This document shows positions 2,413-18,336 of a stretch of DNA of 19,880 bases, in pieces. Below the pieces are notes generated by a model. That model saw only the letters and a list, made by a program, of their open reading frames with translations. It did no database searches and was not told the DNA's origin. A program made the position numbers and the translations under genes. The number at the start of each line of letters is the position of its first letter. Position 1 is the first letter of the stretch. Source of the stretch: a bacterium (GTDB lineage Bacteria; Methylomirabilota; Methylomirabilia; CAVQYV01); assembly GCA_043800755.1 (NCBI GenBank), contig JAZDMQ010000001.1, forward strand, positions 1 through 19,880, given 5' to 3'.

Positions 2413-3525
2413 TCAAGCAGGGGCCTTACCCAGCAGGTAAGGAAGGATTTCGTCGATGTTTACGTACTGCTTCACAAGATGCTGAGCTTGCTGTATCTTC
2501 TCGATTTCGTCAGGAAGCATCTTGAAGACCATGCACTGAACCCTCGCTGTGACCGGGTAAGTGTCCTCCTCTGATACCAATACGGGCAAACCAGAGCATT
2601 CGACGAGAGAAAGGATGGCTGGATGGAGGGCAAAACCGCCAGTAAGGAGGAGGGCGACAACCCCTTCCTCCCGACTACTTCGTAAAAGACCGCTATTGGC
2701 CGCCAGCAATATGTTATCGATGCGATCACCGGGGGTTATCATAAGGGAGTGCGGTCCTATCCGCGGGAGGACATTCTGTGGCTCCATTGCCGCCACCAAT
2801 ATGTTATGGACCTGCCTATCCAGGAATCGTTCACCACAAACCACCTCAGCCCCGAGCTCTCGGGCGATTTGCCCCACCTGTGGATAGGTAAGTCTCACAT
2901 CATAGGGAATAGCCCCAAGGAATCTAAGCCCCAAGTTCGCCAGGCCCTGTCTGAGCATTTCTTCAATGTGCTGGCGTTTCTCTGGCCAGACCTTGTTGGC
3001 CACCACGCCGATTACTTGCACCTTTTCGATCTGGAATAGGCCCAGGTTGAGGGCTACTTCATCGATCGTGCTGCCGACCCCACCTTCCACCACCATCAGC
3101 GCCCGTGCGCCGAGCAAGGAGGCAACTTCTGCGTTGGACAGGTCAAGGCAGGACCCCACACCCGCATGTCCTGTGCCCTCGATCACTATTACATCACACC
3201 CCTGGGCAATCTGTTGGTAAGACTCGAGGATCGCCCTCTTGAGCGGCTCAACATTCCGATTGAAAAGGTAGCCTTCGACAAATCCCTTGGGCACCGTCAC
3301 CGGACTCATCTTCGCCAGCCCGCTATCGATCGACAGCGCCGATTGAATCAGCACAGCGTCTTTATCTATCCTCACCCCCTGCTGCTCCACTGTCTGTTGT
3401 CCCACCGGTTTAAAAAAATGCACTCTGAGCCCGCGTTGCGTCAAGGCGTGCATCAGACCAAGGGAAACGGTGGTTTTACCTACGTGTTGGCCGGTGGCAA
3501 CGATGTAAAGGTTTCGCGGAGCCAT
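2413..3525 (-). CDS. BioD-like P-loop (AAA_26) + DRTGG-domain protein (phosphotransacetylase N-terminal-domain family, no catalytic PTA domain)
   Basis: LYIVATGQHVGKTT Walker A-like motif, FFKPVG, VIVIEGTGH, GVVANKV, ITPGDRID and LLLTGG DRTGG-type motifs. ATG 3525 overlaps the upstream TGA and has a GGGGAG RBS. Confidence 0.85.
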   Translation of the reverse strand: MAPRNLYIVATGQHVGKTTVSLGLMHALTQRGLRVHFFKPVGQQTVEQQGVRIDKDAVLIQSALSIDSGLAKMSPVTVPKGFVEGYLFNRNVEPLKRAILESYQQIAQGCDVIVIEGTGHAGVGSCLDLSNAEVASLLGARALMVVEGGVGSTIDEVALNLGLFQIEKVQVIGVVANKVWPEKRQHIEEMLRQGLANLGLRFLGAIPYDVRLTYPQVGQIARELGAEVVCGERFLDRQVHNILVAAMEPQNVLPRIGPHSLMITPGDRIDNILLAANSGLLRSSREEGVVALLLTGGFALHPAILSLVECSGLPVLVSEEDTYPVTARVQCMVFKMLPDEIEKIQQAQHLVKQYVNIDEILPYLLGKAPA

Positions 3526-4157
3526 CACCACTCCCCATTCTGGAGGCGACCCACCAGTCTCTCCGAAAGCACGACTATATCCTCTACTGACAAGAAAGAC
3601 ATTATATAATCGGGGTAAATGAAGGAGGCATTCGGTTTGAATTCCTCGTCTCCCGCATACCAGGCGATGGCTACCGGTATAGACGGAAAGACCTGAAACC
3701 GAAAGCCCTGGTCTCCCCCTTCGAAGTGCTGGGCACCGAGGTGAAGACTCGCCTCAACAAAGGTATCGCGATCCCGCCCGGCGGTGGCGCAGAGTCGATC
3801 CAAAACGCGCCTGCGGTGAACGCCCTCGTAGCCCCGAGCCTCCATAATGTCGCCAAAGCTTATCCAGCGAGCGAATTTTGGGTACGGTGGCCGTGCAGAA
3901 AGGTAGTGCAGGGCCAGTATTTGCCATTCCACCCGAATTCCGGCCTCCGCCTCGGCCGCATTGCCTTTGACTGAGATTTTCTCCTCTCTTAGGTTCACCA
4001 GAAACCGGCCCTCCAGCACGGGAAGCTCGTAGCATCCGCTTCCTGTCTCCACCGCACCAAGGGCGGAAAGATATTGGCTGTTCCGGGTACGCACAGCCTC
4101 AAAGGCGCGGGCGAGGGCTTCTTGGTAAGGAGATTGTCTCTCGGGCGGCTTTATCAC
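3525..4157 (-). CDS. DUF3786-domain protein
   Basis: QILALHYL..WISFGDI..G..Y..GD..F.FQVFP.IPV....YAGDEEF.PNA....D.....LSVEDI pattern. GTG start with GAGG RBS. Confidence 0.8.
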   Translation of the reverse strand: MIKPPERQSPYQEALARAFEAVRTRNSQYLSALGAVETGSGCYELPVLEGRFLVNLREEKISVKGNAAEAEAGIRVEWQILALHYLSARPPYPKFARWISFGDIMEARGYEGVHRRRVLDRLCATAGRDRDTFVEASLHLGAQHFEGGDQGFRFQVFPSIPVAIAWYAGDEEFKPNASFIYPDYIMSFLSVEDIVVLSERLVGRLQNGEW

Positions 4158-4185: not shown

Positions 4186-4980
4186 TCAGGCGCCGCGCAT
4201 CCGGTAAGCTTCGAGAAAGGAATCGCAGTAAATAGTCTTTTGGAGAAGTAGTTCGGTTGCAATGCCAGCGTTCATGAGTTCCGTATCGAGGGGGTCGAGG
4301 ATCACCGAGTCCATGCCCGCCGTCAGGGCCATCACAAGATAGGTGCGATTGATGAGCCGACGCTCATTGCAGCCCTGAGAGACATTGGAGAGGCCGAGTA
4401 AGAGTTGGGGCGGGGGGCTGCTGAGTAGCCTGAGTTGCTGCAGTGCATTCAGAACATTGGCGGGAGCCGCAGGCGCTGCATTCACCGGAATGATGATGGG
4501 ATCGATGAAGTAGCTATCCATCGGTAGCCCGCACTCCATTGCCTTGGTTGCTATGAGCGCTCCCAGTTCGACCCTCTTCTCGGCATCGGATGGAACCCCC
4601 TTTTCGTCGATGGTGAGGGCAATGAGAGAGGCGTTGTTCTCTATGGCCAGACCCATGTATCTCTCCAGTTCGGCCTCGTCTGCCTTACAAGAATTGATGA
4701 TGGCGCGGCCAGGGACATTGGGCACAACTTCCTTCTGCACTTCCCATTTGGGGCTGTCAATGGAGAGAGGCACATCCGTGACTTCGCGCACCGTATTCAC
4801 CAGCCACATCATCGCCTCAATGGGTTTATCGCTGGCGGGCCCCACGTTGAGGTCAAGGGCCTGGGCATTTGCCTTCACTTGAGCGAGCGCGACATTTTGA
4901 ATAGCCTGTTTGTCTTTCTCCACTATCGCCCTGCGCACATCTTTGAACATGCCGTTTATTCGTTCACCGATGATATACAT
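4186..4980 (-). CDS. acsE: Methyl-THF:corrinoid iron-sulfur protein methyltransferase
   Basis: MYIIGERINGMF, LDLNVG, LSIDS, IINS, FIDP, GLSNVS pterin-binding barrel motifs. AAAGGAGA RBS; acs operon context. Confidence 0.95.
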   Translation of the reverse strand: MYIIGERINGMFKDVRRAIVEKDKQAIQNVALAQVKANAQALDLNVGPASDKPIEAMMWLVNTVREVTDVPLSIDSPKWEVQKEVVPNVPGRAIINSCKADEAELERYMGLAIENNASLIALTIDEKGVPSDAEKRVELGALIATKAMECGLPMDSYFIDPIIIPVNAAPAAPANVLNALQQLRLLSSPPPQLLLGLSNVSQGCNERRLINRTYLVMALTAGMDSVILDPLDTELMNAGIATELLLQKTIYCDSFLEAYRMRGA

Positions 4981-5001: not shown

Positions 5002-5979
5002 CTATGTGGCCATTGAAGCAGCTTCGGCGACCAACCTGTCGATAGCCTTACGCACCAAGGCTATCGCCTTGGGATGCCTAAGTACGAGAAGATCCGCACC
5101 CGCCTGCAGGTAGTTGGTGGCGGTAAGCCCTTCCCAAAGGAAGCCACGCTCCTCGGCGGGGCCAAAACCGGGTAGTGCATCTTCAGAGGCCTGAGCCTCC
5201 TTGGCGCTCCAGGCCTCCCTCCCTACATCGCAAAGCACCGGCTGCTGCAGCAGGGGGTCTCCTCCGAGACCAGCGATTCTGGCCCGCTCCATGATGCTAT
5301 AGACATATTCGAAGCCATAGCCCATGGCAGCGGAGGTGGGATACATAACGATGTTTTCGGGCGGATAGCCTGCATCGTGTGCGAGTATGTTGACCTGCTT
5401 GGCGATATTGATATCGAGGGGAGATTCGGCGATAAGTTTGTGGCCGTCGGCGAGGCAAGCGGCGACCAGGGTACGGTAATTCTTTTCTGTGATGGTGCCG
5501 AACAGACAGTTCTTGCCTTTTGCCACTTCGCTGCATTTAGGAAGGACAGTATTATCCTTTTCCTCCAAACCGCAGCCCCACACGATGAGCGGCAAGTCGA
5601 TTGCAGAGAGCACCCCTTCGAGCACCTTGGCGGCTTCATCGGCCCCTCGATCACCCCTGTCAGGGTGGGTTCCTATAAGCCGGAGACATATCAGGTCAGG
5701 ACCCAGTTCTGCGGCCCGTTTTGCCCACTCCATCGGGTTGTCGATGACGTCGCCATACTGTTTCCTGAGCTCCTCGGGCCACGATCCGGCACCTGAGTCC
5801 CAGATTTCGACCGCAATGGCAGGTCGATTCCCTGCCTCACCTTCATAGGCCATCCAGGGGATGCACTTCGCCCCTCCAATGGTGACCGACTTTCCATGGC
5901 CGCCGTTGCCGGAAGCAGCTCCGATGGTTACCCGGTTGATGGCCGCAGACCAGCGCTGTGCAGTCTCTTTCGCCTTCAT
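5002..5979 (-). CDS. acsD: Corrinoid iron-sulfur protein small subunit (CdhD/delta)
   Basis: PAIAVEIWD, ESPLDINIAKQVN, MGYGFEYVYSIMERARIAGLGGD, AWSAKEA, AGADLLVLRHP. Confidence 0.95.
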   Translation of the reverse strand: MKAKETAQRWSAAINRVTIGAASGNGGHGKSVTIGGAKCIPWMAYEGEAGNRPAIAVEIWDSGAGSWPEELRKQYGDVIDNPMEWAKRAAELGPDLICLRLIGTHPDRGDRGADEAAKVLEGVLSAIDLPLIVWGCGLEEKDNTVLPKCSEVAKGKNCLFGTITEKNYRTLVAACLADGHKLIAESPLDINIAKQVNILAHDAGYPPENIVMYPTSAAMGYGFEYVYSIMERARIAGLGGDPLLQQPVLCDVGREAWSAKEAQASEDALPGFGPAEERGFLWEGLTATNYLQAGADLLVLRHPKAIALVRKAIDRLVAEAASMAT

Positions 5980-5989
5980 AGTACTCCTC

Positions 5990-6757
5990 TCATTTTGACA
6001 AAATCACTTGTCCATTGGCGATACAGGCCTCAAAAAGCCTTGCAAACCCTGGCGGCAGTTTCGCCGACAGCACGCTTTTTTCCTCTATCGCCAGTTGTGC
6101 CACGCCCTCGTCAAAAAGCAGCGTTACAGTCGAATCGAACCCTTCCATTGGCAACGCCCCATACACTTCCTCGGAAATCCCGGTAGGGGGGACTTTATTC
6201 CATACCAGCACGCGCCGCCCTATCCTCACGGGAAGACTTCTCGCAAGTTCCACAATTCTGGCAGCCGTGCGAGCACTTACCAAGGTCGGTTCGCTGAGCA
6301 CTACCAGGCAGTCGATATCGTCCGTATTCATGCGCGAGAGATGCTCCATGCCCGCCTCATTGTCTACCACCGTCACCTTGTAGCCTCCCCTTAGAGTGGC
6401 GAGGGCGGCCCGCAGCAGGGTGTTCACGTAACAGTAACAAACCTGGCCCTCGGGTCGACCCATTATAAGAAGATCGAACCCGGCAGACTCAATGATGCAT
6501 TCTTCGAGTTTGAACTTTAACATCCTCTCTTTGGGCACACCGGTGACTGAAGCCTTCGCCCGCATGATCTCCTCGCGTACATCGCTTATGGTCCGTCCTG
6601 GGGTCAATCCAAGGAGAGGTGCCAGAGTGCTGTTGGGATCAGCATCCACTGCCAAAACCGGGCGGATTCCCTCGTACAGTAATAGCCTTACGAGAGAGGC
6701 CGTCACCGTAGTCTTGCCAGTACCTCCTTTGCCAGTAACCGCTATGAGGTAACCCAT
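5990..6757 (-). CDS. acsF: CooC/AcsF-type nickel-insertion ATPase (likely ACS A-cluster maturase)
   Basis: IAVTGKGGTGKTT deviant Walker A, VDADPN, CYC metal motif, DNEAGMEHLSR. Start taken at MGYLIA (6757). The AcsF assignment rests on position inside the acs operon. Confidence 0.85.
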   Translation of the reverse strand: MGYLIAVTGKGGTGKTTVTASLVRLLLYEGIRPVLAVDADPNSTLAPLLGLTPGRTISDVREEIMRAKASVTGVPKERMLKFKLEECIIESAGFDLLIMGRPEGQVCYCYVNTLLRAALATLRGGYKVTVVDNEAGMEHLSRMNTDDIDCLVVLSEPTLVSARTAARIVELARSLPVRIGRRVLVWNKVPPTGISEEVYGALPMEGFDSTVTLLFDEGVAQLAIEEKSVLSAKLPPGFARLFEACIANGQVILSK

Positions 6758-6764
6758 GAAAACC

Positions 6765-8702
6765 CTACCTATTGGATATCCTGGCCTGCAGGGATGGAAA
6801 CTCCTCGATATGAGTATGTGGCAGGAAGCAAGCGGAGGTGAACTCCTCCATGAAGGTTGGATCCGTGCTGAGTTCAAAGTACGTCATGGAGCCAGCCAGC
6901 CGCTTCGCCTCTGCAAAGCGCTCACGATTCAGCAACGCCATCTTGGCGCCCGCTGCCGAAGTGTTGCCCGCAAACCGAAGTTTGTGGGGATCCACATCCG
7001 GAAGGAGACCGATGAAGACCGCGTTCTCCATATCGAGGTAGTGGCCGAATGCGCCGGCAATCATTACTTCCTCGAGATCAGAGGCTTTAAGCCCGAGGGA
7101 CTTCAACAGGACTTTGGTTGCAGCATAGATGGCACCTTTAGCCCGCAGGAGATTCTCTATGTCGGCCTGCGTTATGACCAGGTCGCGGCTGGCACCCCTT
7201 TCGCCCGCCCCCACGATAACGAATTCCCTTTGGCCATCGGTGCCCTCCCGCAGGTTCTCGAGACCACATTGGGGATTGAATCTTCCCGACTTGTCAATAA
7301 CGCCCATAAGCAGCAATTCCGCCAGAAGGTCCACATATGCAGTACCGCAGAGGCCTGCCGGTGGCTCGTCTCCGATCGTAGAGTAGCTGAAACGGCTGTA
7401 CCCACTCCAGCCGCGAATGTGATCGATGGCACCGCGCATGGCCCACATACCGTGTCGGGTGGTGGCGCCTTCGAAGGCAGGACCAGCCGAGGCACTCGCA
7501 CAAACCATCCAGTCTTTGTTGCCGATGGCCACCTCGCCATTGGTGCCGACGTCGATGAGCATCCTGGGCCTCTCCGCCTCTGCCATGCCGATTGCCATAA
7601 CACCAGCAGTGATATCCGCGCCCACAAACGCGCTTACGCAGGGGAGGGAATAAAGGAGGCCCCGCGAATTAATAGTGAGGCCAACCTCCGCAGCGCGGAA
7701 CGGCGGCGGCTGGTATGTCGCGCCGACATACGGCTCCGGCCGGATCCATGTAGGATTGATGCCCAGCAAAAGATGCATCATGGTAGTGTTTCCGGCGGCA
7801 GCAATCACGCTGATGTCGGAGACGCTGATGCGGAGCTGGTTTTGAAGTTCTCTGATGAGAAGGTTGATGTCTTCGATGATGCGGTCGTGGAGCTGCTGAA
7901 GGCCGTCTGGCTGTTCGGAGCACCAGAGGATGCGGTGAATGACATCAGCGCCGTAGATGGCCTGCGAATTGTACTTGGCGGCAGTACCCAATGTCTTGCC
8001 AGTCTGCAGGTCAACGAGATAGGTGACAATGGTCGTGGTCCCCACGTCCACGGCGACTGCAAGATTCCGCTTGCAGGTGTCTCCCGGGGCCACTTCCGTG
8101 ATCTCGGTCAATGCCCCTCGGTAGGCCGTGGTAGCAGTAACTCGGTGTCCCGCCTGCCGGAGCACATCGGGCAGCGTGCGGATGACCTTGAGGCCCATCT
8201 GGAACTCGCCGCCCCCGACGGCGTGGCGCAGTGCGTGCTCCAGGCGATCGAGGTCTGCACGGTTATAACTTAGGCTCGGCGCTGGTACTTCCAGGTAGTA
8301 TTTCTTGACCAATGGATCGAGGATCGTGGGGCGGCGTTCGAGGACGGCAATTTCGCTCAGGCGCTTTTCGCCCGCATCCACTTCGATGATTCGCGCTCGG
8401 ATCCGCGACTCCGGTGGGACTTCTACCACCAGGTCGCCCGCAATCCGGGCCTCACAGGCCAGAATATACCCCTCTCTGATCTCGTGGCGGGTAAAAAAAT
8501 CCGTGGTTCCGCCCACAACCTCGCCCTCGCGCACAATGACGCGGCATTTTCCACATACCCCTTCGCCCCCGCACAGGCTGTCTATGAATACACCCGCTTT
8601 TCTCGCCGCATCCAAAATGGTCGTTCCGAGCGGAACCTCGACCTTCAACTCGTCCGGCTGAAATTCCAGGGTGCACGTCTTGTTTCCCTTTTCCGCACTC
8701 AT
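6765..8702 (-). CDS. acsV: Reductive activator of CoFeSP (RACo): [2Fe-2S] + ASKHA ATPase
   Basis: CGGEGVCGKC...LAC ferredoxin domain; DVGTTT, YGADVI.RI, DVGTNGE, SAGPAFEG, GLCGT, AGAFG. ATG 8702 overlaps the acsC stop (ATGA). Confidence 0.92.
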   Translation of the reverse strand: MSAEKGNKTCTLEFQPDELKVEVPLGTTILDAARKAGVFIDSLCGGEGVCGKCRVIVREGEVVGGTTDFFTRHEIREGYILACEARIAGDLVVEVPPESRIRARIIEVDAGEKRLSEIAVLERRPTILDPLVKKYYLEVPAPSLSYNRADLDRLEHALRHAVGGGEFQMGLKVIRTLPDVLRQAGHRVTATTAYRGALTEITEVAPGDTCKRNLAVAVDVGTTTIVTYLVDLQTGKTLGTAAKYNSQAIYGADVIHRILWCSEQPDGLQQLHDRIIEDINLLIRELQNQLRISVSDISVIAAAGNTTMMHLLLGINPTWIRPEPYVGATYQPPPFRAAEVGLTINSRGLLYSLPCVSAFVGADITAGVMAIGMAEAERPRMLIDVGTNGEVAIGNKDWMVCASASAGPAFEGATTRHGMWAMRGAIDHIRGWSGYSRFSYSTIGDEPPAGLCGTAYVDLLAELLLMGVIDKSGRFNPQCGLENLREGTDGQREFVIVGAGERGASRDLVITQADIENLLRAKGAIYAATKVLLKSLGLKASDLEEVMIAGAFGHYLDMENAVFIGLLPDVDPHKLRFAGNTSAAGAKMALLNRERFAEAKRLAGSMTYFELSTDPTFMEEFTSACFLPHTHIEEFPSLQARISNR

Positions 8703-10036
8703 GGTTTCCACTGATTCTTGAGGAACGAAACCAGCCCTGAGGCCTCTTTGGGCCCAACTATCGCCTCCCATCCAGATTCGTCTTCAACGCCGGCTTTCAG
8801 GACCGCCACCAGTCCGGGCAGAACGAGTTTCCTGTGTTTCACCTTGGCCTCGATACCACTTTCCTTCAGGGCCTTGGTAATGGTCTTGGCGTTGAACTTA
8901 TCAGCCGCCCAGGCAGTAAGTACGCTTGTCCCCTCGGTATCCACCGAAAGGATATTCGCTGGCACCCTTGACGCCTCAACCTCCGGCTCAACCGAGAAAT
9001 AAGAGAGGGCAAAATTGGTGGTGACGAGAACCGGCGCCTGGGGGCCTGGCTCACCCACCCCGTACAGGCCGGGCTCCACCTTGACCGGGACCGTGGGATC
9101 GGTGTAGATATCTTGCCGCGTGGTGAGGATGCTGAGCAGGTAATGGGGCTGGATGAGATCTACCACGATCACCCCGGCGTACTTGAGCACATACCAGCAA
9201 GCGTCAACGAGAGCCTCGGCTGGATCCTCTGAAAAGGAGACCATCGCTACCGGGTAACCAAGCGGGCGGAACTTCTTTTGAATCGCCGCACGTCGAGTTT
9301 GGGTAAGGAACTGCAGACCCTCGCCGGCACGAACTGGCCCGGGGGAAAGGACCAGTTGTTTGAGTCCTTCCGCCCTCGCCTTTTCTGACAGCCTTACCAC
9401 GTCATCGAAACCCGACCCTTCGAGGACCAGTGGCAGGGAGAGTTCCTTGGCGACCGGGATAGCCTCTTCGCTGCTTCCGCCAAACGCCCACAAGAGTGGC
9501 CGTTCCGCCTTAAGCGCCTCCGCTGCGGCGCGGAGGGAGGCGATGTTTTCCCCCATGAGGATGAGCGCCTTGCCTGAGGCAGCACTGGCGACCTTCGCTG
9601 CCTCAATGAAACGGGTGGGATCACCGGAGACGTTGTGCACCGCCACGAGGTTCGCTGCCAGGGTATTCCCCATGCGTTCGAATCTCGTATTCGCGACCCG
9701 CTCAGAGCGTTCCCGGATGGCGGCATCGTCAAGGTCGTCTTTCATGCGCACTGCGACCGCAACGGGACGATGGAAGCGATCCTCGTGTCGGAACAGTGCG
9801 GTTTCCTGCCCGATCTCGATGGCTTTCCCCCCTTCGCCTATCTTTATCAGCTGCTGCGGCGGTGCGCTCGCCTCGCTAAGCGCGGCTTTTGCTTCGGGAG
9901 TGACATGGGGACACTGGTCCAATCCTGCCTGACCCGCCGCGACCTTCATGGCGAACGCCAAGCAGGTCGGCACCCCACAATCCTTGCAGTTCGTCTTAGG
10001 AAGATGCTTGTAAATCTCAAGGCCCGATAACGGCAT
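8699..10036 (-). CDS. acsC: Corrinoid iron-sulfur protein large subunit (CdhE/gamma)
   Basis: LPKTNCKDCGVPTCLAFA..CP [4Fe-4S] motif, FRHE, IYTDP, TTNFALSYF, SVLTAWAA, GPKEAS. Confidence 0.97.
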   Translation of the reverse strand: MPLSGLEIYKHLPKTNCKDCGVPTCLAFAMKVAAGQAGLDQCPHVTPEAKAALSEASAPPQQLIKIGEGGKAIEIGQETALFRHEDRFHRPVAVAVRMKDDLDDAAIRERSERVANTRFERMGNTLAANLVAVHNVSGDPTRFIEAAKVASAASGKALILMGENIASLRAAAEALKAERPLLWAFGGSSEEAIPVAKELSLPLVLEGSGFDDVVRLSEKARAEGLKQLVLSPGPVRAGEGLQFLTQTRRAAIQKKFRPLGYPVAMVSFSEDPAEALVDACWYVLKYAGVIVVDLIQPHYLLSILTTRQDIYTDPTVPVKVEPGLYGVGEPGPQAPVLVTTNFALSYFSVEPEVEASRVPANILSVDTEGTSVLTAWAADKFNAKTITKALKESGIEAKVKHRKLVLPGLVAVLKAGVEDESGWEAIVGPKEASGLVSFLKNQWKP

Positions 10037-10099: not shown

Positions 10100-12277
10100 C
10101 TACATGAGTGGTTCCATCTCCAATGCTGGATGGCTTACCTGCTGCAAATGCGCCAGCAATGTGGCAGTGTCCGTGGCCACCGTCTCATCCGCGATCTTGT
10201 CCACGAGGTCCGGCAGACCCAATTCCTTGGCCCGTTCTTCCAGCCGGGGGCGGATCGCGTTCTTGAGTTCCTGGGGCATCCAAACGAGCCGCCGAAGGCC
10301 GCCCTCAGCGGAAATGAATTTGCGGGAAGTAAGGTAAAGTCTACCTACACCGACAAAGCCAGGTGTCTGCGCACCGCCACCGACTGAGCCTGCCAGCGTA
10401 CTGAACGCCATGCCAATAGGCGTGTCGCCGAGGTATTCGCGATTGACAGCAATGACACCGTTTGCTTCCGGGATGACGGCGACGATGACCTCGAAGCAGC
10501 CGCAAGAAGTCATGGTGTTCTGCATGATGGAGTACGCTGAGAAGTGCTCCACCGTGCGGTTTGATTTGGCGTGTACAAACTCATTCACATCCTGCCATTC
10601 GCCAACTCGCTGATCGATAGTGCGACCCTTCTTTACCGGCTGGTTGGGTCCCGTGGGCTTGATCTCGTAAGCGGCTTGACCGTCGAGCCAGTTGTAAGCA
10701 CCGCAGAGGCCAAGCCGTTCCGGCGTGATTATGCACACATGGTTGGGCGCATAGGACTGGCAGATGGTGCAGGAGTAGAAGGTATCGACCGATTCGTCGG
10801 TCATGCCCGCCACCCTCGCATCGCGGGCGTCAAATACCGGCGAAGCTTCGGCCATTATTCTCTCCACCTCTTTGGAATCAGTGTAGATTTTCACCTGAAC
10901 CTTATCCACGATGCCTCCGTATTCCTCGTGGAGTTTGGCGTGCAAAATGGTGCCGAAGTGCTTGAGCCGGAATCCAGCCTTGTGTGTATCTTTGTGCATG
11001 CGTATCCACACTTGGTCCCGCTGTGCCATGTGACTGATGCCCATGGCCTGGTTCAGGTACCGATGTATCTGGCGCTCCAAAATGCCTTCGAAGTCTGGCT
11101 TCATTTTGCGGCCTGCGACCTCGACGACAAGGGCCAGGTCCATGGCACCACCTTCCTGGGCTGCGTCGAGGTCGGAGCCGAAGAGTTCGACTTTTCCGTC
11201 CTCCACCTTATCCGCGTCCAGCGTCTTCAGGAACTCTACACCCTCGGAGTATTTTCCGCCGAATTGGATATACAGGTCTTCCTTGCGGACCCTTTCACCT
11301 TCGAATGCCGCCGCAAAGGCAACCGGGATATCTATCTCCTCGACCTTCACTTTAACCCCGCGTACCTCTATGGCCTTAGGCACGAGTTTCCTTGCATCCA
11401 GTTCGCGCACCACATGTTCGTAGGTGCAGATGCCGGTGGGCAGAATCTCTGGTACGTCGGTGTCAGCGATAACCGGGAAACCCATGTTGATGGCGCCAGC
11501 CCCGGTGGCATACTTGAGATCGTCCACCTCACCGAGCACAAGGCCAAAGGCGAAGACCCGTTCTTTGCAGTAAAGCAAGCATTCCCTCCCCTGACCGGGC
11601 TTGAGCCCACCGAAGGTGAGGGCAGAACGAATGGCCCAGTGGAGCGGATAGATCGCACTGATGGTATCGCGGCCGTAAGGGACGATGTAGGTATCCCAGC
11701 CCATCTCCACATTCGCCTCCTTGAGCTGATCCACGATGCTGGTCCCGTTGGATCTGGAGCCAGCAAAGATGAGTATGCTCCGCCTCTGCAGTTCGCGTAC
11801 GATCGCGACCGCGGTTTCGGTATCCTGCGCCGCGCCGAGTATGGCAGCGAATCCGGGCATGCGGCCGTCTACCAACTGTATGCCCAACTGGCGCATTTGA
11901 GTATCGGTGAAAAAACCCTCGCAGTCGGGCTGCGGCTCCTCACCAAATAGGTAACGCACCGCTACCACGATCTCCTCCGCGAGAAGCGTCGCGATGCCGG
12001 CATCGAGGGTGTGACCCAGATAGGGGAGCCACAATCGATCTGAAGGCACCTCGTGAAGCTGGGCTTTGGCCTCTTCCAGAACCGGGGCCATTCCGCCGAC
12101 GGTCTTTACCTCAGCCCCTAAGAGCGCGTTGGCCATAGGCAGGTAAAAGGCCGTTCCCGGGAATTCGACTTTAGCATCCTCTCCCTTCTCGATACGGGCG
12201 CGCTCCAGTTGCGCCTCGGCCTCTTTGACGACCTGGTGAGCCCCTCTTATAGCCGCGCTCGCTATGATCCTTGACAT
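10100..12277 (-). CDS. acsB: Acetyl-CoA synthase, bacterial type with N-terminal CODH-binding domain
   Basis: A-cluster ligands FYSCTICQSYAPNHVC, RLGLCGA, MTSCGCFE; FEGERVRK; GGGAQTPGF. Confidence 0.97.
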   Translation of the reverse strand: MSRIIASAAIRGAHQVVKEAEAQLERARIEKGEDAKVEFPGTAFYLPMANALLGAEVKTVGGMAPVLEEAKAQLHEVPSDRLWLPYLGHTLDAGIATLLAEEIVVAVRYLFGEEPQPDCEGFFTDTQMRQLGIQLVDGRMPGFAAILGAAQDTETAVAIVRELQRRSILIFAGSRSNGTSIVDQLKEANVEMGWDTYIVPYGRDTISAIYPLHWAIRSALTFGGLKPGQGRECLLYCKERVFAFGLVLGEVDDLKYATGAGAINMGFPVIADTDVPEILPTGICTYEHVVRELDARKLVPKAIEVRGVKVKVEEIDIPVAFAAAFEGERVRKEDLYIQFGGKYSEGVEFLKTLDADKVEDGKVELFGSDLDAAQEGGAMDLALVVEVAGRKMKPDFEGILERQIHRYLNQAMGISHMAQRDQVWIRMHKDTHKAGFRLKHFGTILHAKLHEEYGGIVDKVQVKIYTDSKEVERIMAEASPVFDARDARVAGMTDESVDTFYSCTICQSYAPNHVCIITPERLGLCGAYNWLDGQAAYEIKPTGPNQPVKKGRTIDQRVGEWQDVNEFVHAKSNRTVEHFSAYSIMQNTMTSCGCFEVIVAVIPEANGVIAVNREYLGDTPIGMAFSTLAGSVGGGAQTPGFVGVGRLYLTSRKFISAEGGLRRLVWMPQELKNAIRPRLEERAKELGLPDLVDKIADETVATDTATLLAHLQQVSHPALEMEPLM

Positions 12278-12447: not shown

Positions 12448-12448
12448 T

Positions 12449-13264
12449 CTATCGCTTCCCGATTCCCCGATTCAAATCATGCCCGTTCAGCACCTTCTTG
12501 AGAGTTTCGCCAAACGTCGCACCACGACATGCATAGCACGTTCTGGCTAACTCCTCTGGTAAGCTGACTCTATGGCGTGCCTCTTCGATCTGTTTTGCGG
12601 TCTCGAAAAACTTCCCGCATACGCTGCACTTCACCATCTCCAGACGAATGTTCAGGCCCCTCAGGACTCGTTCGCCATCGATATCCTCATAGCGGATGGC
12701 CCCGGTGGGACAGACGAAGACGCAGGCGCCGCAGCCAATGCATTCCCTTCCCTGGTCGCCATAGGGAGTAGTGATGAACCTCTCCATCCCGCGGTTCGCA
12801 TAACCAATCGCGTGCTGGCCGACCACATCGTCACAGACGCGAACACAGAGTCCACAGAGTATGCAGTCCTCCGGGCCGGGCGGATGTCCCACCGGAAATC
12901 TGGCCGCTTCGATGCCATATTCACTGGCCAATCCCCGAATAGGCTTCGCCCCGGGACAGCGTGCCAGCAGAAGCTCGATTACCATGCGCCGGGCGCGCCG
13001 AACGCGCTGGTTATTCGTTTCTATCCTCTCGTTTTCCCAAGGCTCGTAAACGCAGGAGGTGACGACCTTTGAGCGTTTTCCCCAGAAGGCCTCCACCAGG
13101 CAGAGTCGACAGGAGGCATAAGGGGAGAGCGACTCGTGGTGGCAGAGAGTGGGGATTTGAATGTCGTGCCGCCTTGCCACATGCAATACCGTCTCTCCGG
13201 GGGCGGCCTCTACGCTCTGTCCGTCCAGGATGAATTGCACACCTTTTTTTTCTTGTTTTTCCAT
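12449..13264 (-). CDS. HydA/NuoG/HoxU N-terminal-like Fe-S subunit with no catalytic domain
   Basis: IPTLCHH..SCRLCLVE..TSC [2Fe-2S]; CILCGLCVRVC and CIGCGACVFVCP 2x[4Fe-4S]; C-terminal CSVC...CYAC; 271 aa. Confidence 0.88.
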   Translation of the reverse strand: MEKQEKKGVQFILDGQSVEAAPGETVLHVARRHDIQIPTLCHHESLSPYASCRLCLVEAFWGKRSKVVTSCVYEPWENERIETNNQRVRRARRMVIELLLARCPGAKPIRGLASEYGIEAARFPVGHPPGPEDCILCGLCVRVCDDVVGQHAIGYANRGMERFITTPYGDQGRECIGCGACVFVCPTGAIRYEDIDGERVLRGLNIRLEMVKCSVCGKFFETAKQIEEARHRVSLPEELARTCYACRGATFGETLKKVLNGHDLNRGIGKR

Positions 13265-13278
13265 GAGTTGCCGCTTCC

Positions 13279-15189
13279 TTATGTCACATCAATTGCCTGG
13301 TGCCGGCAGGTGTCGGCACAGATTCCGCATTTCGTGCACTGGGAAGGATCAATGGCATGAGGCTCCTTCCTCTCCCCGGCAATGGCGTTGGCCGGGCATG
13401 CCTTGGCGCACAGTGTGCAACCCGTGCAATTTTCGGGCAGAATCCGGTAGGTGATGAGGGCCCGACAGACCTTAGCGGGACATCTCCCTTCCTCGATGTG
13501 GATCCGATATTCCTCGGCGAAGTATTTCAGGGTCGTCAACACCGGGTTGGGGGCAGATGTCCCCAACGCGCAGAGGGAGGCCTCGGCGATCCCAGTGGCC
13601 AATTCCTCCAGCAACTCGATATCGCCTGGGCGACCTCGTCCTCCACAGATGTCTTCCAGGATTTCGAGCATCCGCGCCGTCCCCTCGCGGCACGGTATGC
13701 ACTTGCCGCACGACTCCTCCTTGAGAAACGCCAGGAAGTACCGGGCCACGTCCACCATACAGGTGCGGTCGTCCATGACAATCATCCCGCCGGAACCCAT
13801 CATCGAGCCCAACTCGGTGAGACGGTCGAAATCGACAGGCGAATCCAGATACTCTGCTGGTATGCACCCTCCGGAGGGCCCCCCGGTCTGAACGGCCTTA
13901 AATTGCCCGCCCTCAGGAATACCGCCGCCAATATCCTCAATCACTTGCCTCAGTGACATCCCCATTGGCACTTCCACCAGCCCGACTCGATTCACCTTGC
14001 CCACCAGCGAGAAGACTTTTGTGCCCTTGCTGCCCTCTGTTCCGATATCCGAATACCACTTCGAACCTCGGGCGATGATCACCGGGACGTTATTCCAGGT
14101 CTCCACATTGTTGAGGCAGCTCGGCTTACCCCAGAGTCCGCTTTCCACCGTATGAATGTATTTGGCGCGTGGTTCTCCAACACGTCCTTCCAGCGAAGCC
14201 ATAAGCGCAGTGGATTCACCACAAACGAACGCACCAGCGCCCCTGTTGATCCGAATGCGGAAATCATGGCCAGAACCAAGGATTTTTTCACCCAAGAGGC
14301 CGTATTGCTCAGCCTGCTTCACTGCAACTCGCAGGCGATTGACCGCCAGGGGATATTCTTCTCGCACATAGATGTAGCCTGTATGGGCTCCTATAGCATA
14401 CGATCCGATTATCATCCCTTCGATGACACTGTGCGGATCGCCCTCAACGATGGCACGATCCATGTAAGCGCCTGGATCACCCTCATCGGCATTACAAATC
14501 ACATATTTGGGATCGCCGTGAGCCCGACGACAAGATTCCCATTTACGCCCCGTGTGAAAACCACCGCCCCCGCGCCCCCTCAGCCCGGATGCCTTTATCT
14601 CCTCGATGATTTGCTCTGGTTTCATCTCCAAGAGGGCCTTTGCAGCGGCGGCATACCCTCCCATGGCGATATACTGGTCGATCGACGAGGGATCTATGGA
14701 ACCACAATTGCGCATGGCAATATACATCTGATGGCGGAAGAAGGGTATTTTCGAGTAAGGAGGAACCTTCTGTATCTGGACAGACAATTTGCCGCGCCGG
14801 TATCTCTTGTTTGTCCCTTCGATCAAGAAAGGCTCCACATCGATTCGCCCTACTACCCGTTCCTCATACACTTCACCCTCGGCCATAGCCCGCAAGAGCT
14901 TCGGGATATCCTCTGAGGTAACCCGACCATAGGTGATCCGGGCCTGGCCGGGTAGGATCACATCCACGAGAGGCTCGAGGAAGCATGCACCTTTACAACC
15001 TGTCTCAATGACCCGAAGATCCAGTTCCTGCCTCTTCATCTCATCCTGCAAAGCGTCAAATACTTTCCGGGAACCAGCGGCAAGCCCACAGGTCGCCATG
15101 CCGACAAGCACCCTCACCTTGCCGTCAAAAAGGGCTTTACAGGAGGAAGCCCGCGTCTCATGTAATTGCTGTGGCGTCCCGATTTTCAC
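13279..15189 (-). CDS. HydB/NuoF-like FMN/NAD(P)H-binding diaphorase subunit
   Basis: SGLRGRGGGGF, CNADEGDPGAYMDR, GAGAFVCGE, NNVET, GGPSGG, ESCGKCIPCREG..SLC, HIEEGRCPAKVC, C-terminal 2x[4Fe-4S]. N-terminal thioredoxin-like GMATCG..GCKGAC domain. Confidence 0.93.
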   Translation of the reverse strand: MKIGTPQQLHETRASSCKALFDGKVRVLVGMATCGLAAGSRKVFDALQDEMKRQELDLRVIETGCKGACFLEPLVDVILPGQARITYGRVTSEDIPKLLRAMAEGEVYEERVVGRIDVEPFLIEGTNKRYRRGKLSVQIQKVPPYSKIPFFRHQMYIAMRNCGSIDPSSIDQYIAMGGYAAAAKALLEMKPEQIIEEIKASGLRGRGGGGFHTGRKWESCRRAHGDPKYVICNADEGDPGAYMDRAIVEGDPHSVIEGMIIGSYAIGAHTGYIYVREEYPLAVNRLRVAVKQAEQYGLLGEKILGSGHDFRIRINRGAGAFVCGESTALMASLEGRVGEPRAKYIHTVESGLWGKPSCLNNVETWNNVPVIIARGSKWYSDIGTEGSKGTKVFSLVGKVNRVGLVEVPMGMSLRQVIEDIGGGIPEGGQFKAVQTGGPSGGCIPAEYLDSPVDFDRLTELGSMMGSGGMIVMDDRTCMVDVARYFLAFLKEESCGKCIPCREGTARMLEILEDICGGRGRPGDIELLEELATGIAEASLCALGTSAPNPVLTTLKYFAEEYRIHIEEGRCPAKVCRALITYRILPENCTGCTLCAKACPANAIAGERKEPHAIDPSQCTKCGICADTCRHQAIDVT

Positions 15190-15203
15190 AATTTCCCACT
15201 TCG

Positions 15204-15677
15204 CTATCTATAGAGTTTGAGGATCTTAGTGATATTGTTCGGCCGAAGGTCGCCGTAAACCTCTTGGTCAATCATGAGGACCGGTGCCAATGAGCAGCAC
15301 CCGAGGCACCGGACGCTCTGGACAGTGAACACTCCATCCTTCGTGGTTTGGCCATCATCGACTCCCAGCTCCGCTCGGAGGATGTTATCGATCTTCTCTG
15401 CGCCCTTGACATGGCAAGCTGTGCCCCGACATATGCTGATGATATGCTTGCCCCGAGGGACCAGGCTGAAGGCCTTAAAGAAGGTGGCGACATGATATAC
15501 CCGGGCCCGAGAAGTACCGAGAGCCTCGCCGGCGCGATCCAATATCTCGCGCGGCAAGTAGTGGCACTCCTCCTGGAAATCTTGTAGCACGGAGATGAGG
15601 GAGGACGGCTCTTTTGGATACCTCTCCAGGATCTTGCTGATCACCCGATCGGTGTCAATGTGGGCCAATTCGCTCAC
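15204..15677 (-). CDS. HydC/NuoE-like [2Fe-2S] subunit
   Basis: VATFFKAF, ICRGTACHVKG, VRCLGCCSLAP. GTG overlaps the cooF stop; GGAGG RBS. Confidence 0.93.
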   Translation of the reverse strand: MSELAHIDTDRVISKILERYPKEPSSLISVLQDFQEECHYLPREILDRAGEALGTSRARVYHVATFFKAFSLVPRGKHIISICRGTACHVKGAEKIDNILRAELGVDDGQTTKDGVFTVQSVRCLGCCSLAPVLMIDQEVYGDLRPNNITKILKLYR

Positions 15678-16204
15678 TTCTTGCCTCCATCAAGCGACCG
15701 CTCGATCTGCACCAGGAAGGCCTCCCGCTTGGCCTCCAGTATCTCGTCCAGGGGCTTGTATTGCAGCGCCTTCGTCGGGCACGCCGAGACGCAGGCAGGT
15801 ATTCCGCCCAAGGCGACCCGTTCAGAGCACTCATCGCACTTGATAATGGTCTGACCCTCGCTGTCCATCCTGATCACGCCAAAGGGGCACGCCAAGATGC
15901 ACCATTTGCATCCGATGCACAGTTCATGCTTGATGTACACCGGGCTCTCTTCACTTGCCCTTTGGATCGCCTTGGTGGGGCAAATCTCCACGCAGGGTGC
16001 ATTCACACATTGACGGCACTGAAGAGGCACCGCCCCATTTCCAGCCGCCACCACCCACACCCGAGGCAGCTGGCGCGGCGTCTCCCAAACGGCCCCCACG
16101 AGTTCCTTGGCGCGCGAATGCTCCACAACACAGGCCAGTTCGCAACTGCGACATGCCAAGCATCGCGAAATATTAATGTACAGGATACTACGTTTGCCTT
16201 TCAT
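15674..16204 (-). CDS. cooF: CooF-like 4x[4Fe-4S] electron-transfer protein
   Basis: CLACRSCELAC, QCRQCVNAPCVEICP, CIGCKWCILACPFG, KCDEC..PACVSACP. ATG 16204 with GAGGAG RBS, directly after cooS. Confidence 0.88.
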   Translation of the reverse strand: MKGKRSILYINISRCLACRSCELACVVEHSRAKELVGAVWETPRQLPRVWVVAAGNGAVPLQCRQCVNAPCVEICPTKAIQRASEESPVYIKHELCIGCKWCILACPFGVIRMDSEGQTIIKCDECSERVALGGIPACVSACPTKALQYKPLDEILEAKREAFLVQIERSLDGGKK

Positions 16205-16267
16205 CAGTTGACTCCTCGCTGCCCTGAAGCCCATTTGCAGCACGGCTACCTGGAAGAGGAAGAATTC

Positions 16268-18208
16268 TCAGCCCACAAGCACGGGCTCGGACACCTCATC
16301 CAGTTTACGCGGCGCGTACATGATGGGCCGCAGATTGAGTTCTATCCTTTTCTTATCGATGTGGGCAATCATGAGTTGCGCTCCCTTCACCGGATCCGGC
16401 TCGAACTCGAAGCGGCCGCCGAAGATATTCTCGATATCGCCGCAGATGAAGTCCATGACTTCCTTGCTGCCCAGCACCGGCAGGTTGGTGCCGAGCACGG
16501 TGTAGACACCCGAGGCGATGACATAGAAGCCGATGGCTACCGCCTTCTCGCTCATCCATTCGGGAGCGGCGCCGGCCACCGGAAGGTCGGCAATGCTCGT
16601 TCCAAGCCCGCCCTCTTTCACCACATTGCAGCAAACGGTGAGGATGCGGCTGATGTCGACGCAGGAGCCGAGGTGGAGGATGGGAGGAATTCCGACAGCA
16701 CGGCAGATTTCCCGAAGGCCTTCACCAGCCCACTCCTCTGCTGCCTCGGGTCTCAGGAGACCGGCCTTGGCATTGGCGATGGCGGAGCAGCCCGTAGTCA
16801 GAATGATCACATCGTGGCGCAGGAGCTCCTTGGCCATTTCGACATGGCCATAGTCATGGCAATGCTTGGGGTTATTGCAGCCGACGATTGCCGCTGCCCC
16901 GCGGAGCCGACCGCTCATCACGGCGTCATTGAGTGGACGGTAGGTGGCGCGGAATTTGCCGCCGAGAAAATCGTAGATGCTCTCGGCGGTGAATCCGGCG
17001 ACGAGGTCACTCCGGATGTCGGGAATCGTCGCTTTCCCCTTGCGGTTGGGGAAGTTCTCGATGCCGGCCCGCACGATCTCCTTGGCAACCGCCATAGCGC
17101 GGTCTTCGCGGAACTCGATATGTTGGGCGTAGGGAAACTTCGCCTTGGGCGAGGTGGAGATGAAACGGGTATGGAAGCAGGAGCTGAGTTCACCGAGGGC
17201 AGGGAATACACACTGCACATCGACGACCATCGCGTCCACCGCACCGGTGGCAATGGCCAGTTCCTGCTGCAGGAAGTTGCCGGCGACGGGGATGCCATGG
17301 CGCATGAGGATCTCATTCGAGGTGCAGCAGATACCGGCGAGGGAGATGCCTTTGGCGCCCTTTTGCTTGGCGAGTTCGATGAGTTCTGGGTCCTGTGTGG
17401 CAACAACGATCATGTCCGAAAGCGTCGGTTCATGCCCATGGACAATAATATTCACCTTTTCCTCTTCCAGCACGCCGAGATTGACCTGGGACCGCAGGGG
17501 ATGTGGCAAACCAAAGAGGACATCAGAGAGCTCCGTGGCAATCATGGATCCGCCCCAGCCATCCGCGAGGGCCGCCCGAACTCCTTGCAGGATGATGTTC
17601 CGGGGGTCGTTGTCCACCCCCATGGTGGTCCGATGCATGATCTCGACAATTTCTCGATCGATTCCCCGCGGCATGACGCCGTTTTCGCGCCAGCGTCGCT
17701 GTTGATCTTGGGGGGCTCTTTTCGCGAACTGGAGCTCTCCATGTTGCTGCCCGAACTGGGAGAAGGCTCGTTCGGCCACATCACGGGCTACTTCCTCTTT
17801 GCTTCTCCCTTTCTCCGGGATGCCAAACTCACGGGCCAGAGCCCGCACTTTGCTCTCCCCCTTCACCTTGTAATCGCCCTTGCCTTCGGCGGCCATGAGG
17901 AGCGTGTGGGCAACGTCCCGCCCGTGGTCGGAGTGTGCGGCGGCACCGGCCGCAATCATCCGAGCGAGGTTTCTGGCGGCAATGATATCGGCGGTAGCGC
18001 CGCAGATGCCGCGTTTAGGACCTTCGCCAAACGGATCGATGCGGCACGGCCCCATGGTGCAAATGCGACAGCAAATTCCCAACTCCCCGAAACCGCATTG
18101 GGGCTGCATAGCATCGTAGCGATCGAAGGCCAATTCGATGCTCATACCCGAAGAAATATCGATCATGTGACAAGATGCTGCATCTATGCTGCGCTGCTTG
18201 TTGTCCAT
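16268..18208 (-). CDS. cooS: Anaerobic Ni,Fe carbon monoxide dehydrogenase catalytic subunit (CooS/AcsA)
   Basis: CGFGELGICCRICTMGPC..ICG (D/B clusters), HSDH, HGHEP, GICCT, DVQC, GCNN, TGC, GSCVD, MSEKA. Start is ATG 18208 (AAGGAG upstream); 18235 or 18277 are possible. Confidence 0.97.
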   Translation of the reverse strand: MDNKQRSIDAASCHMIDISSGMSIELAFDRYDAMQPQCGFGELGICCRICTMGPCRIDPFGEGPKRGICGATADIIAARNLARMIAAGAAAHSDHGRDVAHTLLMAAEGKGDYKVKGESKVRALAREFGIPEKGRSKEEVARDVAERAFSQFGQQHGELQFAKRAPQDQQRRWRENGVMPRGIDREIVEIMHRTTMGVDNDPRNIILQGVRAALADGWGGSMIATELSDVLFGLPHPLRSQVNLGVLEEEKVNIIVHGHEPTLSDMIVVATQDPELIELAKQKGAKGISLAGICCTSNEILMRHGIPVAGNFLQQELAIATGAVDAMVVDVQCVFPALGELSSCFHTRFISTSPKAKFPYAQHIEFREDRAMAVAKEIVRAGIENFPNRKGKATIPDIRSDLVAGFTAESIYDFLGGKFRATYRPLNDAVMSGRLRGAAAIVGCNNPKHCHDYGHVEMAKELLRHDVIILTTGCSAIANAKAGLLRPEAAEEWAGEGLREICRAVGIPPILHLGSCVDISRILTVCCNVVKEGGLGTSIADLPVAGAAPEWMSEKAVAIGFYVIASGVYTVLGTNLPVLGSKEVMDFICGDIENIFGGRFEFEPDPVKGAQLMIAHIDKKRIELNLRPIMYAPRKLDEVSEPVLVG

Positions 18209-18309
18209 TATTTCGGCATCTCCTTCCTCTGACATGTCCTTACTGTTTTTGGCCCCGGACTCCTTCGCGTCCACCACGTCTATTTATTGTTGCCTTTACA
18301 CCGCCTTCT

Positions 18310-18336
18310 ATTATATCCTTCTGTCATATTAGTCAA
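18310..18336 (-). promoter_or_regulatory. Candidate sigma70 promoter of the cooS-acs operon
   Basis: TTGACT (18336-18331) and perfect TATAAT (18315-18310), but only a 15-nt spacer. Confidence 0.4.

Follow-up and report, generated by a model that had tools for sequence, protein, structure and literature searches.

An acs gene cluster of a Methylomirabilota genome encodes a CODH/ACS with a CODH-linked, putatively electron-bifurcating Bfu module

In the gene cluster described here, three genes resembling nuoE, nuoF and nuoG stand between the genes for the carbon monoxide dehydrogenase (CODH) and the acetyl-CoA synthase (ACS), and the question raised is which enzyme this trio serves, and how. The cluster lies in a 19,880 nucleotide stretch of DNA, referred to as the window (GenBank assembly GCA_043800755.1, contig JAZDMQ010000001.1, positions 1 to 19,880, forward strand), from a bacterium of the Methylomirabilota (Methylomirabilia; CAVQYV01). 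The window is a complete contig (C53) of a genome of 2.43 Mb in 166 contigs, listed as 100% complete with 0.06% contamination. The gene order is cooS-cooF-bfuC-bfuB-bfuA-acsB, all on the minus strand and inside a complete acs cluster. It is well supported that this is a real, conserved, CODH-linked type 2 Bfu module. Our reading, to which we assign a probability of roughly 55%, is that the operon encodes a CODH/ACS in which a dedicated, electron-bifurcating Bfu module is connected to CODH, making up a Codh-Bfu (CooS-CooF-BfuABC). The genes concerned are as follows.

16268..18277, minus strand: cooS/acsA, Ni-CODH catalytic subunit, 669 aa (Pfam/NCBIfam, TIGR01702 above cut-off)
15674..16243, minus strand: cooF, ferredoxin-like wire with 4x[4Fe-4S], a WorS/HycB homologue (Pfam, PDB match, 16 Cys)
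15204..15677, minus strand: bfuC (NuoE/HydC-like), with a [2Fe-2S] C1 cluster at C83, C88, C124 and C128 (Pfam/NCBIfam, motifs)
13279..15189, minus strand: bfuB (NuoF/HydB-like), with the FMN/NAD(P) site (Pfam, motifs, alignments)
12449..13264, minus strand: bfuA (short NuoG/HydA-like), type 2, WorA-like, 271 aa (PDB match, structure model)
10100..12277, minus strand: acsB, acetyl-CoA synthase of the bacterial type with an N-terminal CODH-binding domain (Pfam/NCBIfam)

The initial annotation had placed cooS, cooF and the trio in one contiguous run between cooS and acsB, and its coordinates and spacings are correct. The cooF and bfuC genes overlap by 4 bp (GTGA), gaps of 14 nt each separate bfuC from bfuB and bfuB from bfuA, and 171 nt lie between bfuA and acsB. 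Between cooS and cooF lie 24 nt. The CooF alignment points to the ATG at 16204 as the likely start of cooF, and with that start the gap widens to 63 nt. Contigs from public sequencing runs bridge the acsB/bfuA junction (X1, 11616-12554; X18, 12178-12541) and the bfuA/bfuB junction (X1, 12750-14451), and these two junctions are therefore backed by more than the present assembly. Since the same gene order is found in 8 of the 80 related loci described below, it is not due to chance.

By its domains, the trio belongs to the BfuABC family, as BfuB and BfuC have the defining set. BfuB contains PF01512 (FMN; IPR011538 equivalent), PF10531 (SLBB), PF10589 (NADH_4Fe-4S) and Fer4, and BfuC contains PF01257; the family is described as having FMN, SLBB, NADH_4Fe-4S and 4Fe-4S ferredoxin domains in BfuB and a thioredoxin-like [2Fe-2S] domain in BfuC (Schut 2022, PMC9304861). 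The features that had been listed for the HydB-like subunit were recovered, with PGAYMDR at residue 239, GGPSGG at 436, an extra Cys/His site formed by TCMV at 476, DICGG at 513 and HIEEGRCPAKVC at 564, and a C-terminal 2x[4Fe-4S] domain (B3/B4) with CxxCxxCxxxC motifs at C588-C598 and C618-C628. The Phe preceding GGPSGG, which had been taken as diagnostic, is present (F430), but the diagnostic residue is F321 in GAGAFVCGE, also present, which aligns with F281 of T. sibiricus NfnB. Hence all three markers of bifurcating B subunits, an A-x-M motif, a Phe at the FMN site and GGPSG (Losey 2020; Xiao 2025), are found in BfuB (A241-Y-M243, F321 and GGPSG 436-440). In nine complex-I-like homologues of class relatives from which the FMN-site motif was extracted, Tyr occurs in seven, and A-x-M is replaced by T/I-F-K or T-I-K in all nine (PGTFKDR, PGIFKDR or PGTIKDR).

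The B1 cluster is present, and the B2 ligands C477, C515, H564, C570 and C575 align to C438, C476, H525, C531 and C536 of 7T2R_B, with a constant offset of 39 to A. mobile HydB. The B2 His is absent in non-bifurcating homologues (Schut 2022, PMC9304861). An N-terminal B5 site has three Cys (34, 65 and 69) in the pattern of 9BOV and 8OH5, resembling the Nfn/Stn B subunits. Over the FMN-site segment, including CGES, BfuB is closest to WorB, but for the full-length protein the scores against Nfn/Stn and NiFe-Hyd B subunits exceed that against WorB. Ser326 of BfuB stands where NAD-selective B subunits have Glu (E286 of T. sibiricus NfnB, which contacts the adenosine ribose and is said to select NADH over NADPH). 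A specificity for NADP drawn from this Glu-to-Ser change was rejected, and the nucleotide is not callable from Ser326, because the NAD-binding WorB has the same Ser; a literature search on NuoF E183 and NADPH found nothing. These residues, read from sequence, support the assignment of the trio as a Bfu-family (HydABC-type) module with bifurcation-associated residues.

BfuA was found to contain Fer2/Fer4 domains alone, and no H-cluster, NiFe or molybdopterin domain was found by Pfam in its 271 aa, as had been claimed for the HydA-like subunit. It carries a [2Fe-2S] and two [4Fe-4S] clusters (A1, A2 and A4) without A3, followed by a Zn finger (C213, C216, C243 and C246) that is invariant in 47 aligned homologues and a C-terminal helix at 244-266. 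Its best PDB sequence match is WorA of WorABCSL (9MQX chain A, E 6e-46; runner-up 7e-31), and an AlphaFold2 model (pLDDT 88) superimposes on 9MQX_A with TM 0.81/0.88 and rmsd 2.0 Å, the next structure having TM 0.62. With no catalytic domain and a WorS-like subunit encoded alongside, BfuA has all the features of a type 2, WorA-like subunit. CooF in turn has WorS (9mqx_E, E 2e-26) as its best PDB sequence match, so that the best matches of both proteins are chains A and E of the same bifurcating complex, and it ends in a helix of 22 residues. In 9MQX, the corresponding helix polymerises WorS, while the Zn finger and helix of WorA recruit WorS and bring clusters S4 and A4 to 10.7 Å of each other (Feng 2025, PMC12318220).

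An interface between CooF and the HydA-like subunit, as the initial annotation would have it, is predicted by an ESMFold2 model of BfuA-CooF, which scored 0.80, against 0.00 for the best of three controls; in calibration, 116 of 157 solved pairs and 2 of 215 mismatched pairs scored high enough to pass. Separate runs have 84% or more of their contacts in common, and partner pLDDT is 83 or higher. The closest modelled contacts join cluster motifs of both proteins, BfuA 178-184 and CooF 96-99 (numbered from ATG 16204), and the modelled interface includes the Zn finger/helix (BfuA 221-260). As the similar complex 9MQX has already been solved, the score shows likeness rather than binding, and close cousins of a true partner can pass this test.

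CooS has the type II D-cluster motif C61-x7-C69-C70 together with the B-cluster, C-cluster and His/Lys catalyst motifs, and its best PDB matches are 6t7j and C. autoethanogenum 6ytt. All cluster motifs of CODH and ACS in the window proteins are intact. CooF-like proteins are described as linking to the CooS D-cluster (Inoue 2019).

To place the module among its relatives, GTDB contigs were searched with a profile built from 47 close BfuA proteins, and the best 80 of at least 585 confirmed stretches were analysed; the locus counts given here therefore describe near relatives only. Many of the 80 loci are incomplete at their ends, and phylum labels are those of record titles. The exact order cooS-cooF-bfuC-bfuB-bfuA-acsB, for which a synteny search had been proposed, occurs in eight loci (L031-L034, L039, L042, L044 and L045). 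Six more, incomplete upstream, have bfuA immediately 5′ of acsB, and a further four have cooS behind the module with acs genes adjoining. Together, these 18 acs-adjoining loci span 12 phylum labels. BfuA has the Zn finger in 50 of the 80 loci, 18 by acs, 15 with cooS only, 4 with cooF only, 1 with hdr and 12 with other neighbours, and lacks it in 30, of which 21 are hdr-linked. A tail of at least 10 residues behind the Zn finger is found in all 37 copies with a cooS, cooF or acs neighbour, and a shorter one in 7 of the 13 other Zn-finger copies. Four of the latter were tested and all sit behind pyruvate oxidoreductase genes, a pattern that has been described for Por-Bfu (Feng 2025, PMC12318220). 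Where cooS sits on the other side of the module, cooF still adjoins bfuC (L038, L048, L052, L079 and L082).

Several arrangements were observed in addition. In L037, L046, L056 and L063, pyruvate oxidoreductase alpha and beta genes lie directly 5′ of bfuCBA with a Zn finger and no adaptor helix; these are Por-Bfu candidates in records not labelled Chloroflexota, and L057 has genes of the same sizes. The 15 loci with cooS only include Methanoregula and Methanofollis records. L096 and L106 (Methanomicrobia records) have cooF-cooS-bfuCBA-cooC, L074 is incomplete upstream of bfuB, and all three appear by gene content to be a bacterial-type stand-alone Codh-Bfu in archaea (Methanoregula and Methanofollis records). 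A CooF-like protein with an N-terminal response-regulator receiver domain is encoded before bfuCBA and behind a sigma-54 activator in L061 (2032-3141), and in L043 (4550-7626) cooS, with a cooF on either side, precedes bfuCBA, an arrangement reminiscent of the paired HycB subunits in enzymes that form filaments.

A phylogeny of the HydB-like protein had also been proposed. In a quick tree of 78 BfuB rows (matches with at least 380 aligned residues; LG+G4, SH-aLRT only), BfuB of the window forms a group (support 100) with its counterparts in L031, L032 and L033, three loci that share its gene order. Monophyly of the ACS-linked BfuB was not seen, the sequences being scattered, and the BfuB module is thus mobile. 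The 10 ACS-linked CooS rows form one clade (99). CooS and BfuB distances over 19 loci correlate (Spearman 0.46, permutation p 0.001), although kin are not independent.

A second, archaeal form of Bfu-CODH/ACS coupling is indicated by gene content. In a Bathyarchaeota record (L109, 7606-18438) the order is cdhA, bfuA::frhB, bfuC, bfuB::cdhB, cdhC, cdhD and cdhE, and the CdhB part of the fusion is PF02552, the epsilon subunit of archaeal CODH. CdhB is a fixed subunit of that enzyme. A search with the fused end gave 19 further fusion proteins among 1091 candidates, 52-89% identical, two of them named Bathyarchaeota; 18 have 812-825 aa with both NuoF FMN and CdhB domains, and one is partial. The fusion gene lies between cdhA and cdhC in all four loci read (L109, L119, L120 and L121). 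The fusion to CdhB attaches the Bfu core covalently to CODH/ACS in this archaeal lineage. The fusion was not found in the literature searched.

In the genome to which the window belongs, BLASTP of the open reading frames (ORFs) gave single cooS, acsB, acsC and acsE genes, together with Fhs, a MetF-type methylene-tetrahydrofolate reductase and RnfC, and no match to dsrA. Given the single copies, the intact motifs and Fhs/MetF/RnfC, the window carries the organism's one Wood-Ljungdahl CODH/ACS. The two other Bfu sets have partners of their own. One (C27, 20572-29552), in an Hdr/Flx-like cluster, has HdrA pieces fused to NuoE and to a short NuoG, with mvhD, flx-like genes and hdrB, and its BfuB is the closest paralogue of the window BfuB (57%). 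The other (C67, 11683-18029) has nuoE, a BfuB-GltD fusion of ~1040 aa and a formate dehydrogenase alpha subunit, and is a candidate Fdh/Nfn-type enzyme for the methyl branch. Hydrogenases were considered as partners of the window module and rejected. The sole match to a catalytic FeFe-hydrogenase is a sensory histidine-kinase fusion, the NiFe enzyme on C135 has its own NAD(P)-binding subunit, and the NiFe large/small pair on C142 is on a 3.4 kb contig unlinked to the window. A host ferredoxin was not identified in an ORF scan with a floor of 60 aa. The genome looks like that of an unusual Wood-Ljungdahl anaerobe in its class, as acsB was not found in any of 30 class relatives, one of them a genome of the same family. 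In that same-family genome the neighbours of the closest BfuB are a GltD-like gene and FeFe-hydrogenase-like genes, and the 20 kb examined gave no match to cooS. A pmoA/amoA-family gene is present in 2 of 5 class relatives tested, which points to Methylomirabilia (NC10) as the class and makes a Firmicutes host unlikely.

The CODH-linked Bfu has precedents in print. It was predicted from four Firmicutes sequences, with BfuB in clade 49, and read as serving CO oxidation/detoxification (Schut 2022, PMC9304861), and a CodhABCSF using a CooF nanowire was later put forward as a hypothesis, with the remark that it had not been purified (Feng 2025, PMC12318220), in agreement with the earlier statement that CODH-linked Bfu modules are only predicted. 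COG1034, COG1894 and COG1905 were listed without interpretation in the Wood-Ljungdahl context group of Ni-CODHs (Inoue 2019), and nuoEF are close to the CODH/ACS cluster in NPL-UPA2 (Suzuki 2018). Because CodhABCSF is in print and the NuoE/F/G-like COGs were noted in 2019, the CODH-linked Bfu is less new than first rated. However, no account of a Bfu module embedded with ACS was found in the literature searched, subscription papers being mostly outside it; such loci may be listed in Schut 2022 Supplementary Table 1 or the Feng 2025 supplementary information. The phrase 'acetyl-CoA synthase' has no matches in the available text of Schut 2022 (PMC9304861), and the ACS-embedded module and the BfuB-CdhB fusion are absent from the relevant passages of PMC13056359, PMC7886697, PMC10689502, PMC5113046, PMC6895022 and bioRxiv 10.64898/2026.07.10.736077. 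What is new is that a Codh-Bfu lies within a CODH/ACS cluster, that it extends well beyond Firmicutes, and that a gene fusion in archaea lends it support.

The predicted Codh-Bfu/CodhABCSF likewise consists of BfuABC, CooS and CooF, with a type 2 BfuA, Zn finger/helix, a possible CooF nanowire and CO as third substrate (PMC9304861, PMC12318220). Its defining feature, cooS and cooF in one cluster with bfuABC, is found in the window. However, the published forms are from Firmicutes only, whereas the window module lies inside a complete acs cluster and has relatives across the phylum labels given above. WorABCSL of Acetomicrobium mobile (9MQX, PMC12318220) shares a type 2 BfuA without A3, the Zn finger and adaptor helix, and a 4x[4Fe-4S] subunit with a C-terminal helix (WorS) corresponding to CooF. 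WorABCSL has been shown to bifurcate to NAD and ferredoxin, and its catalytic partner is a tungsten aldehyde oxidoreductase (AOR), where the window module would have a Ni-CODH dimer joined to ACS. No tungstopterin WorL/AOR gene was found in the window, and the module would therefore work like WorABCSL without being a member. Wor was placed in BfuB clade 45, as against clade 49 for the predicted Codh-Bfu (Schut 2022, PMC9304861); the quick BfuB tree held no clade 49 reference sequences.

Other known enzymes are more distant. T. phaeum and S. schinkii (PMC6895022, PMC5113046) and C. autoethanogenum (6YTT) have a CODH/ACS with acsA/B/C/D/E, CooC maturases and intact cluster ligands, as in the window. 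However, acsA and acsB are adjacent in the former two, with no Bfu module, and the redox neighbours are Hdr-like genes and MetF, with MvhD and MetV also in T. phaeum. A bifurcating enzyme of Clostridium autoethanogenum, FdhFeFe-Bfu (HytA-E/FdhA), shares with the window module a type 2 BfuA (A1/A2/A4) and the Zn finger/helix, but its third substrates are H2 and formate, not CO (PMC9304861, PMC12318220). It is reportedly NADP-specific, going by the title of the original paper.

The proposed enzyme would be built like WorABCSL, with CooS replacing the tungsten enzyme WorL. Electrons would pass from the CooS C-cluster through the B- and D-clusters to the four [4Fe-4S] clusters of CooF, on to the distal [4Fe-4S] cluster of BfuA, which the adaptor of Zn finger and helix would keep in place, and then by way of A2 and A1 to B1-FMN-C1 in BfuBC, where pairs would be split between NAD(P)+ and ferredoxin. 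In reverse, electrons of NAD(P)H and reduced ferredoxin would be merged for CO2 reduction. Bifurcation itself is inferred, the nucleotide may be NAD(H) or NADP(H), and the direction may be either. ACS would consume or supply CO on the spot, and this coupling would shift the effective potential of the carbonyl branch from -520 mV (free CO2/CO) to a mid range in which a Bfu is useful. The reduced ferredoxin required for CO2 fixation would be halved and the barrier to acetyl-CoA oxidation lowered. The ACS step amounts to -38 kJ/mol. Potentials of -520, -500 and -280 mV were used (Schut 2022, PMC9304861). Calculated from these and the ACS value, the carbonyl branch would come to ~-34 kJ/mol if ferredoxin is the sole donor, -13 if NADH and ferredoxin act together and +8 if all electrons come from NADH, and with the mixed donor the barrier to acetyl-CoA oxidation would fall from +34 to +13 kJ/mol. 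It had been considered unclear why a -520 mV substrate needs bifurcation (Schut 2022, PMC9304861), and the puzzle would be answered because CO coupled to ACS behaves as a mid-potential reaction.

CODH, through CooF, is the best-supported partner, as the initial annotation proposed, on the grounds of synteny, the WorA/WorS precedent, the complex model and the archaeal fusion. A number of points nevertheless weigh against the proposed wiring. In the review view, only reduced ferredoxin can drive CO2 to CO (-520 mV), free CO oxidation needs no bifurcation (Schut 2022, PMC9304861), and no Codh-Bfu has been characterised biochemically (Feng 2025, PMC12318220). The CooF-CooS contact is inferred, and it would have to be compatible with an ACS bound to CODH. 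The bifurcation markers derive from hydrogenases and are correlative. The B5 site shares its three-Cys pattern with 9BOV and 8OH5 and might bind Zn in place of a [2Fe-2S] cluster; the equivalent site holds Zn in T. sibiricus NfnB, and that enzyme still bifurcates. Being mobile, the module could have other uses, and the genome has nine AOR matches, five with WorS-like neighbours, that could compete for BfuA. The archaeal fusion has a different architecture, with CdhB behind the ferredoxin arm, and A-x-M is kept in 9 of 20 BfuB-CdhB sequences and lost, or its region missing, in 11. For these reasons, the fusion supports attachment but not the exact wiring of the window.

Three other explanations compete with this reading. 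CODH could be the partner via CooF while the module is a plain NAD(P)(H) diaphorase, or loosely coupled, reducing NAD(P)+ and ferredoxin independently and serving CO or acetyl-CoA oxidation to NAD(P)H as in the CooS-CooF-FNOR clusters already known (Inoue 2019). Electron transfer from CO to NAD+ is strongly exergonic by itself, so that bifurcation is unnecessary, and the correlative markers and possible Zn at B5 point the same way, but a diaphorase has no need of the B2 site and B3/B4 ferredoxin arm, absent in non-bifurcating homologues; moreover, the related WorABCSL needs both acceptors though each reaction alone is exergonic, and NADH alone would leave CO2 fixation uphill by the ~8 kJ/mol calculated above even with the ACS step. 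We consider this explanation unlikely. It is rather improbable that BfuABC is a shared hub, co-regulated with acs and docking any WorS/HycB-type protein, such as WorS of tungsten AORs, with CODH/ACS running on free ferredoxin or CooF alone. BfuA is closest to WorA, the complex test tolerates cousins of the true partner, and the WorS-like protein next to the AOR on C15, a short contig, ends in a long C-terminal tail, with no NAD module seen nearby. However, no AOR was found beside a Zn-finger BfuA among the best 80 loci, the one AOR match (L097) occurring with a finger-less BfuA, cooF overlaps bfuC, and cooF remains by bfuC when cooS moves. Finally, CODH might occupy the low-potential (ferredoxin) port of BfuB instead of the third-substrate port, with bifurcation driving CO2 reduction directly and the module possibly also feeding AcsV. 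The archaeal geometry would put CODH at that port, because CdhB is fused right behind the B3/B4 domain, and BfuA there carries FrhB (F420) as a third-substrate site; CODH may indeed sit at the ferredoxin port in the bathyarchaeal F420-type cluster. For the window enzyme, this arrangement is nevertheless quite improbable. Its BfuA lacks a catalytic domain, the window encodes no further subunit for a third substrate, CooF is docked to BfuA in the model, and in 9MQX it is WorA that WorS binds. A CODH wired through CooF to a bifurcating BfuABC is thus retained as the preferred reading.

The remaining genes of the window complete the acs cluster and its surroundings.

8699..10036, minus strand: acsC, corrinoid Fe-S protein large subunit (Pfam/NCBIfam)
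6765..8771, minus strand: acsV/RACo, reductive activator of corrinoid protein (Pfam/NCBIfam)
5990..6877, minus strand: cooC/acsF-like ATPase, likely start near 6757 (Pfam)
5002..5979, minus strand: acsD, corrinoid Fe-S protein small subunit (Pfam/NCBIfam)
4186..4980, minus strand: acsE, methyl-tetrahydrofolate:corrinoid methyltransferase (Pfam/NCBIfam)
3525..4157, minus strand: DUF3786 protein (Pfam)
2413..3531, minus strand: AAA_26 and DRTGG protein, like the N-terminal half of Pta (Pfam/NCBIfam)
24-1019, minus strand: Y1/IS200-like transposase with a C-terminal DnaA-like helix-turn-helix
18509..19288, plus strand: cooC-like Ni-insertion ATPase, divergent from the operon (Pfam)

The gene at 5990..6877 is presumably a CooC, judging from its CbiA/ParA fold and gene position, and a homologue of the divergent cooC-like ATPase adjoins cooS in several related loci. 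The DUF3786 and Pta-like genes 3′ of acsE (2413-4157, minus strand) are also found in L032, and the Pta-like gene, in which Pfam/NCBIfam reported no Pta catalytic domain, is also 3′ of acsE in L042 and near acsE on the other strand in L093. An N-terminus similar to that of the transposase-like protein is encoded on contig C128. No sign of recent transfer was found by GC content (53-61%, against 58% for the genome). A promoter and terminator scan of 10000-18600 gave counts at chance level (3 vs 4.0 and 7 vs 6.9). A TTGACT and TATAAT pair near the sigma-70 consensus lies upstream of cooS (18336-18310, minus strand), and its 15-nt spacer falls outside the 16-18 nt of the scan. Four RNA runs match part of the window and three were placed along it. 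Coverage by run X1 is flat over all 30 bins, transposase end included, and was rejected as proof of transcription because such a profile leaves DNA in the library possible.

The CO2/CO step is the most ferredoxin-hungry in acetogenesis and the hardest in acetate oxidation. If CODH/ACS is bifurcating as proposed, ~20 kJ/mol per turnover would be saved for Rnf, which is encoded in this genome. More tentatively, and at somewhat less than even odds, many uncultured anaerobes may run the carbonyl branch on a CODH/ACS-Bfu supercomplex that merges electrons of NAD(P)H and ferredoxin, possibly via a CooF nanowire carrying several CODH dimers. There would be at least two architectures. In bacteria the link would run through CooF and a BfuA with the Zn finger; in Bathyarchaeia, BfuB is fused to CdhB and BfuA is of the F420 type, and CODH would perhaps replace ferredoxin there. 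If true, this would overturn the rule that only reduced ferredoxin drives CO2 to CO. The operon is a compact and testable target, and its design is relevant to gas-fermentation engineering.

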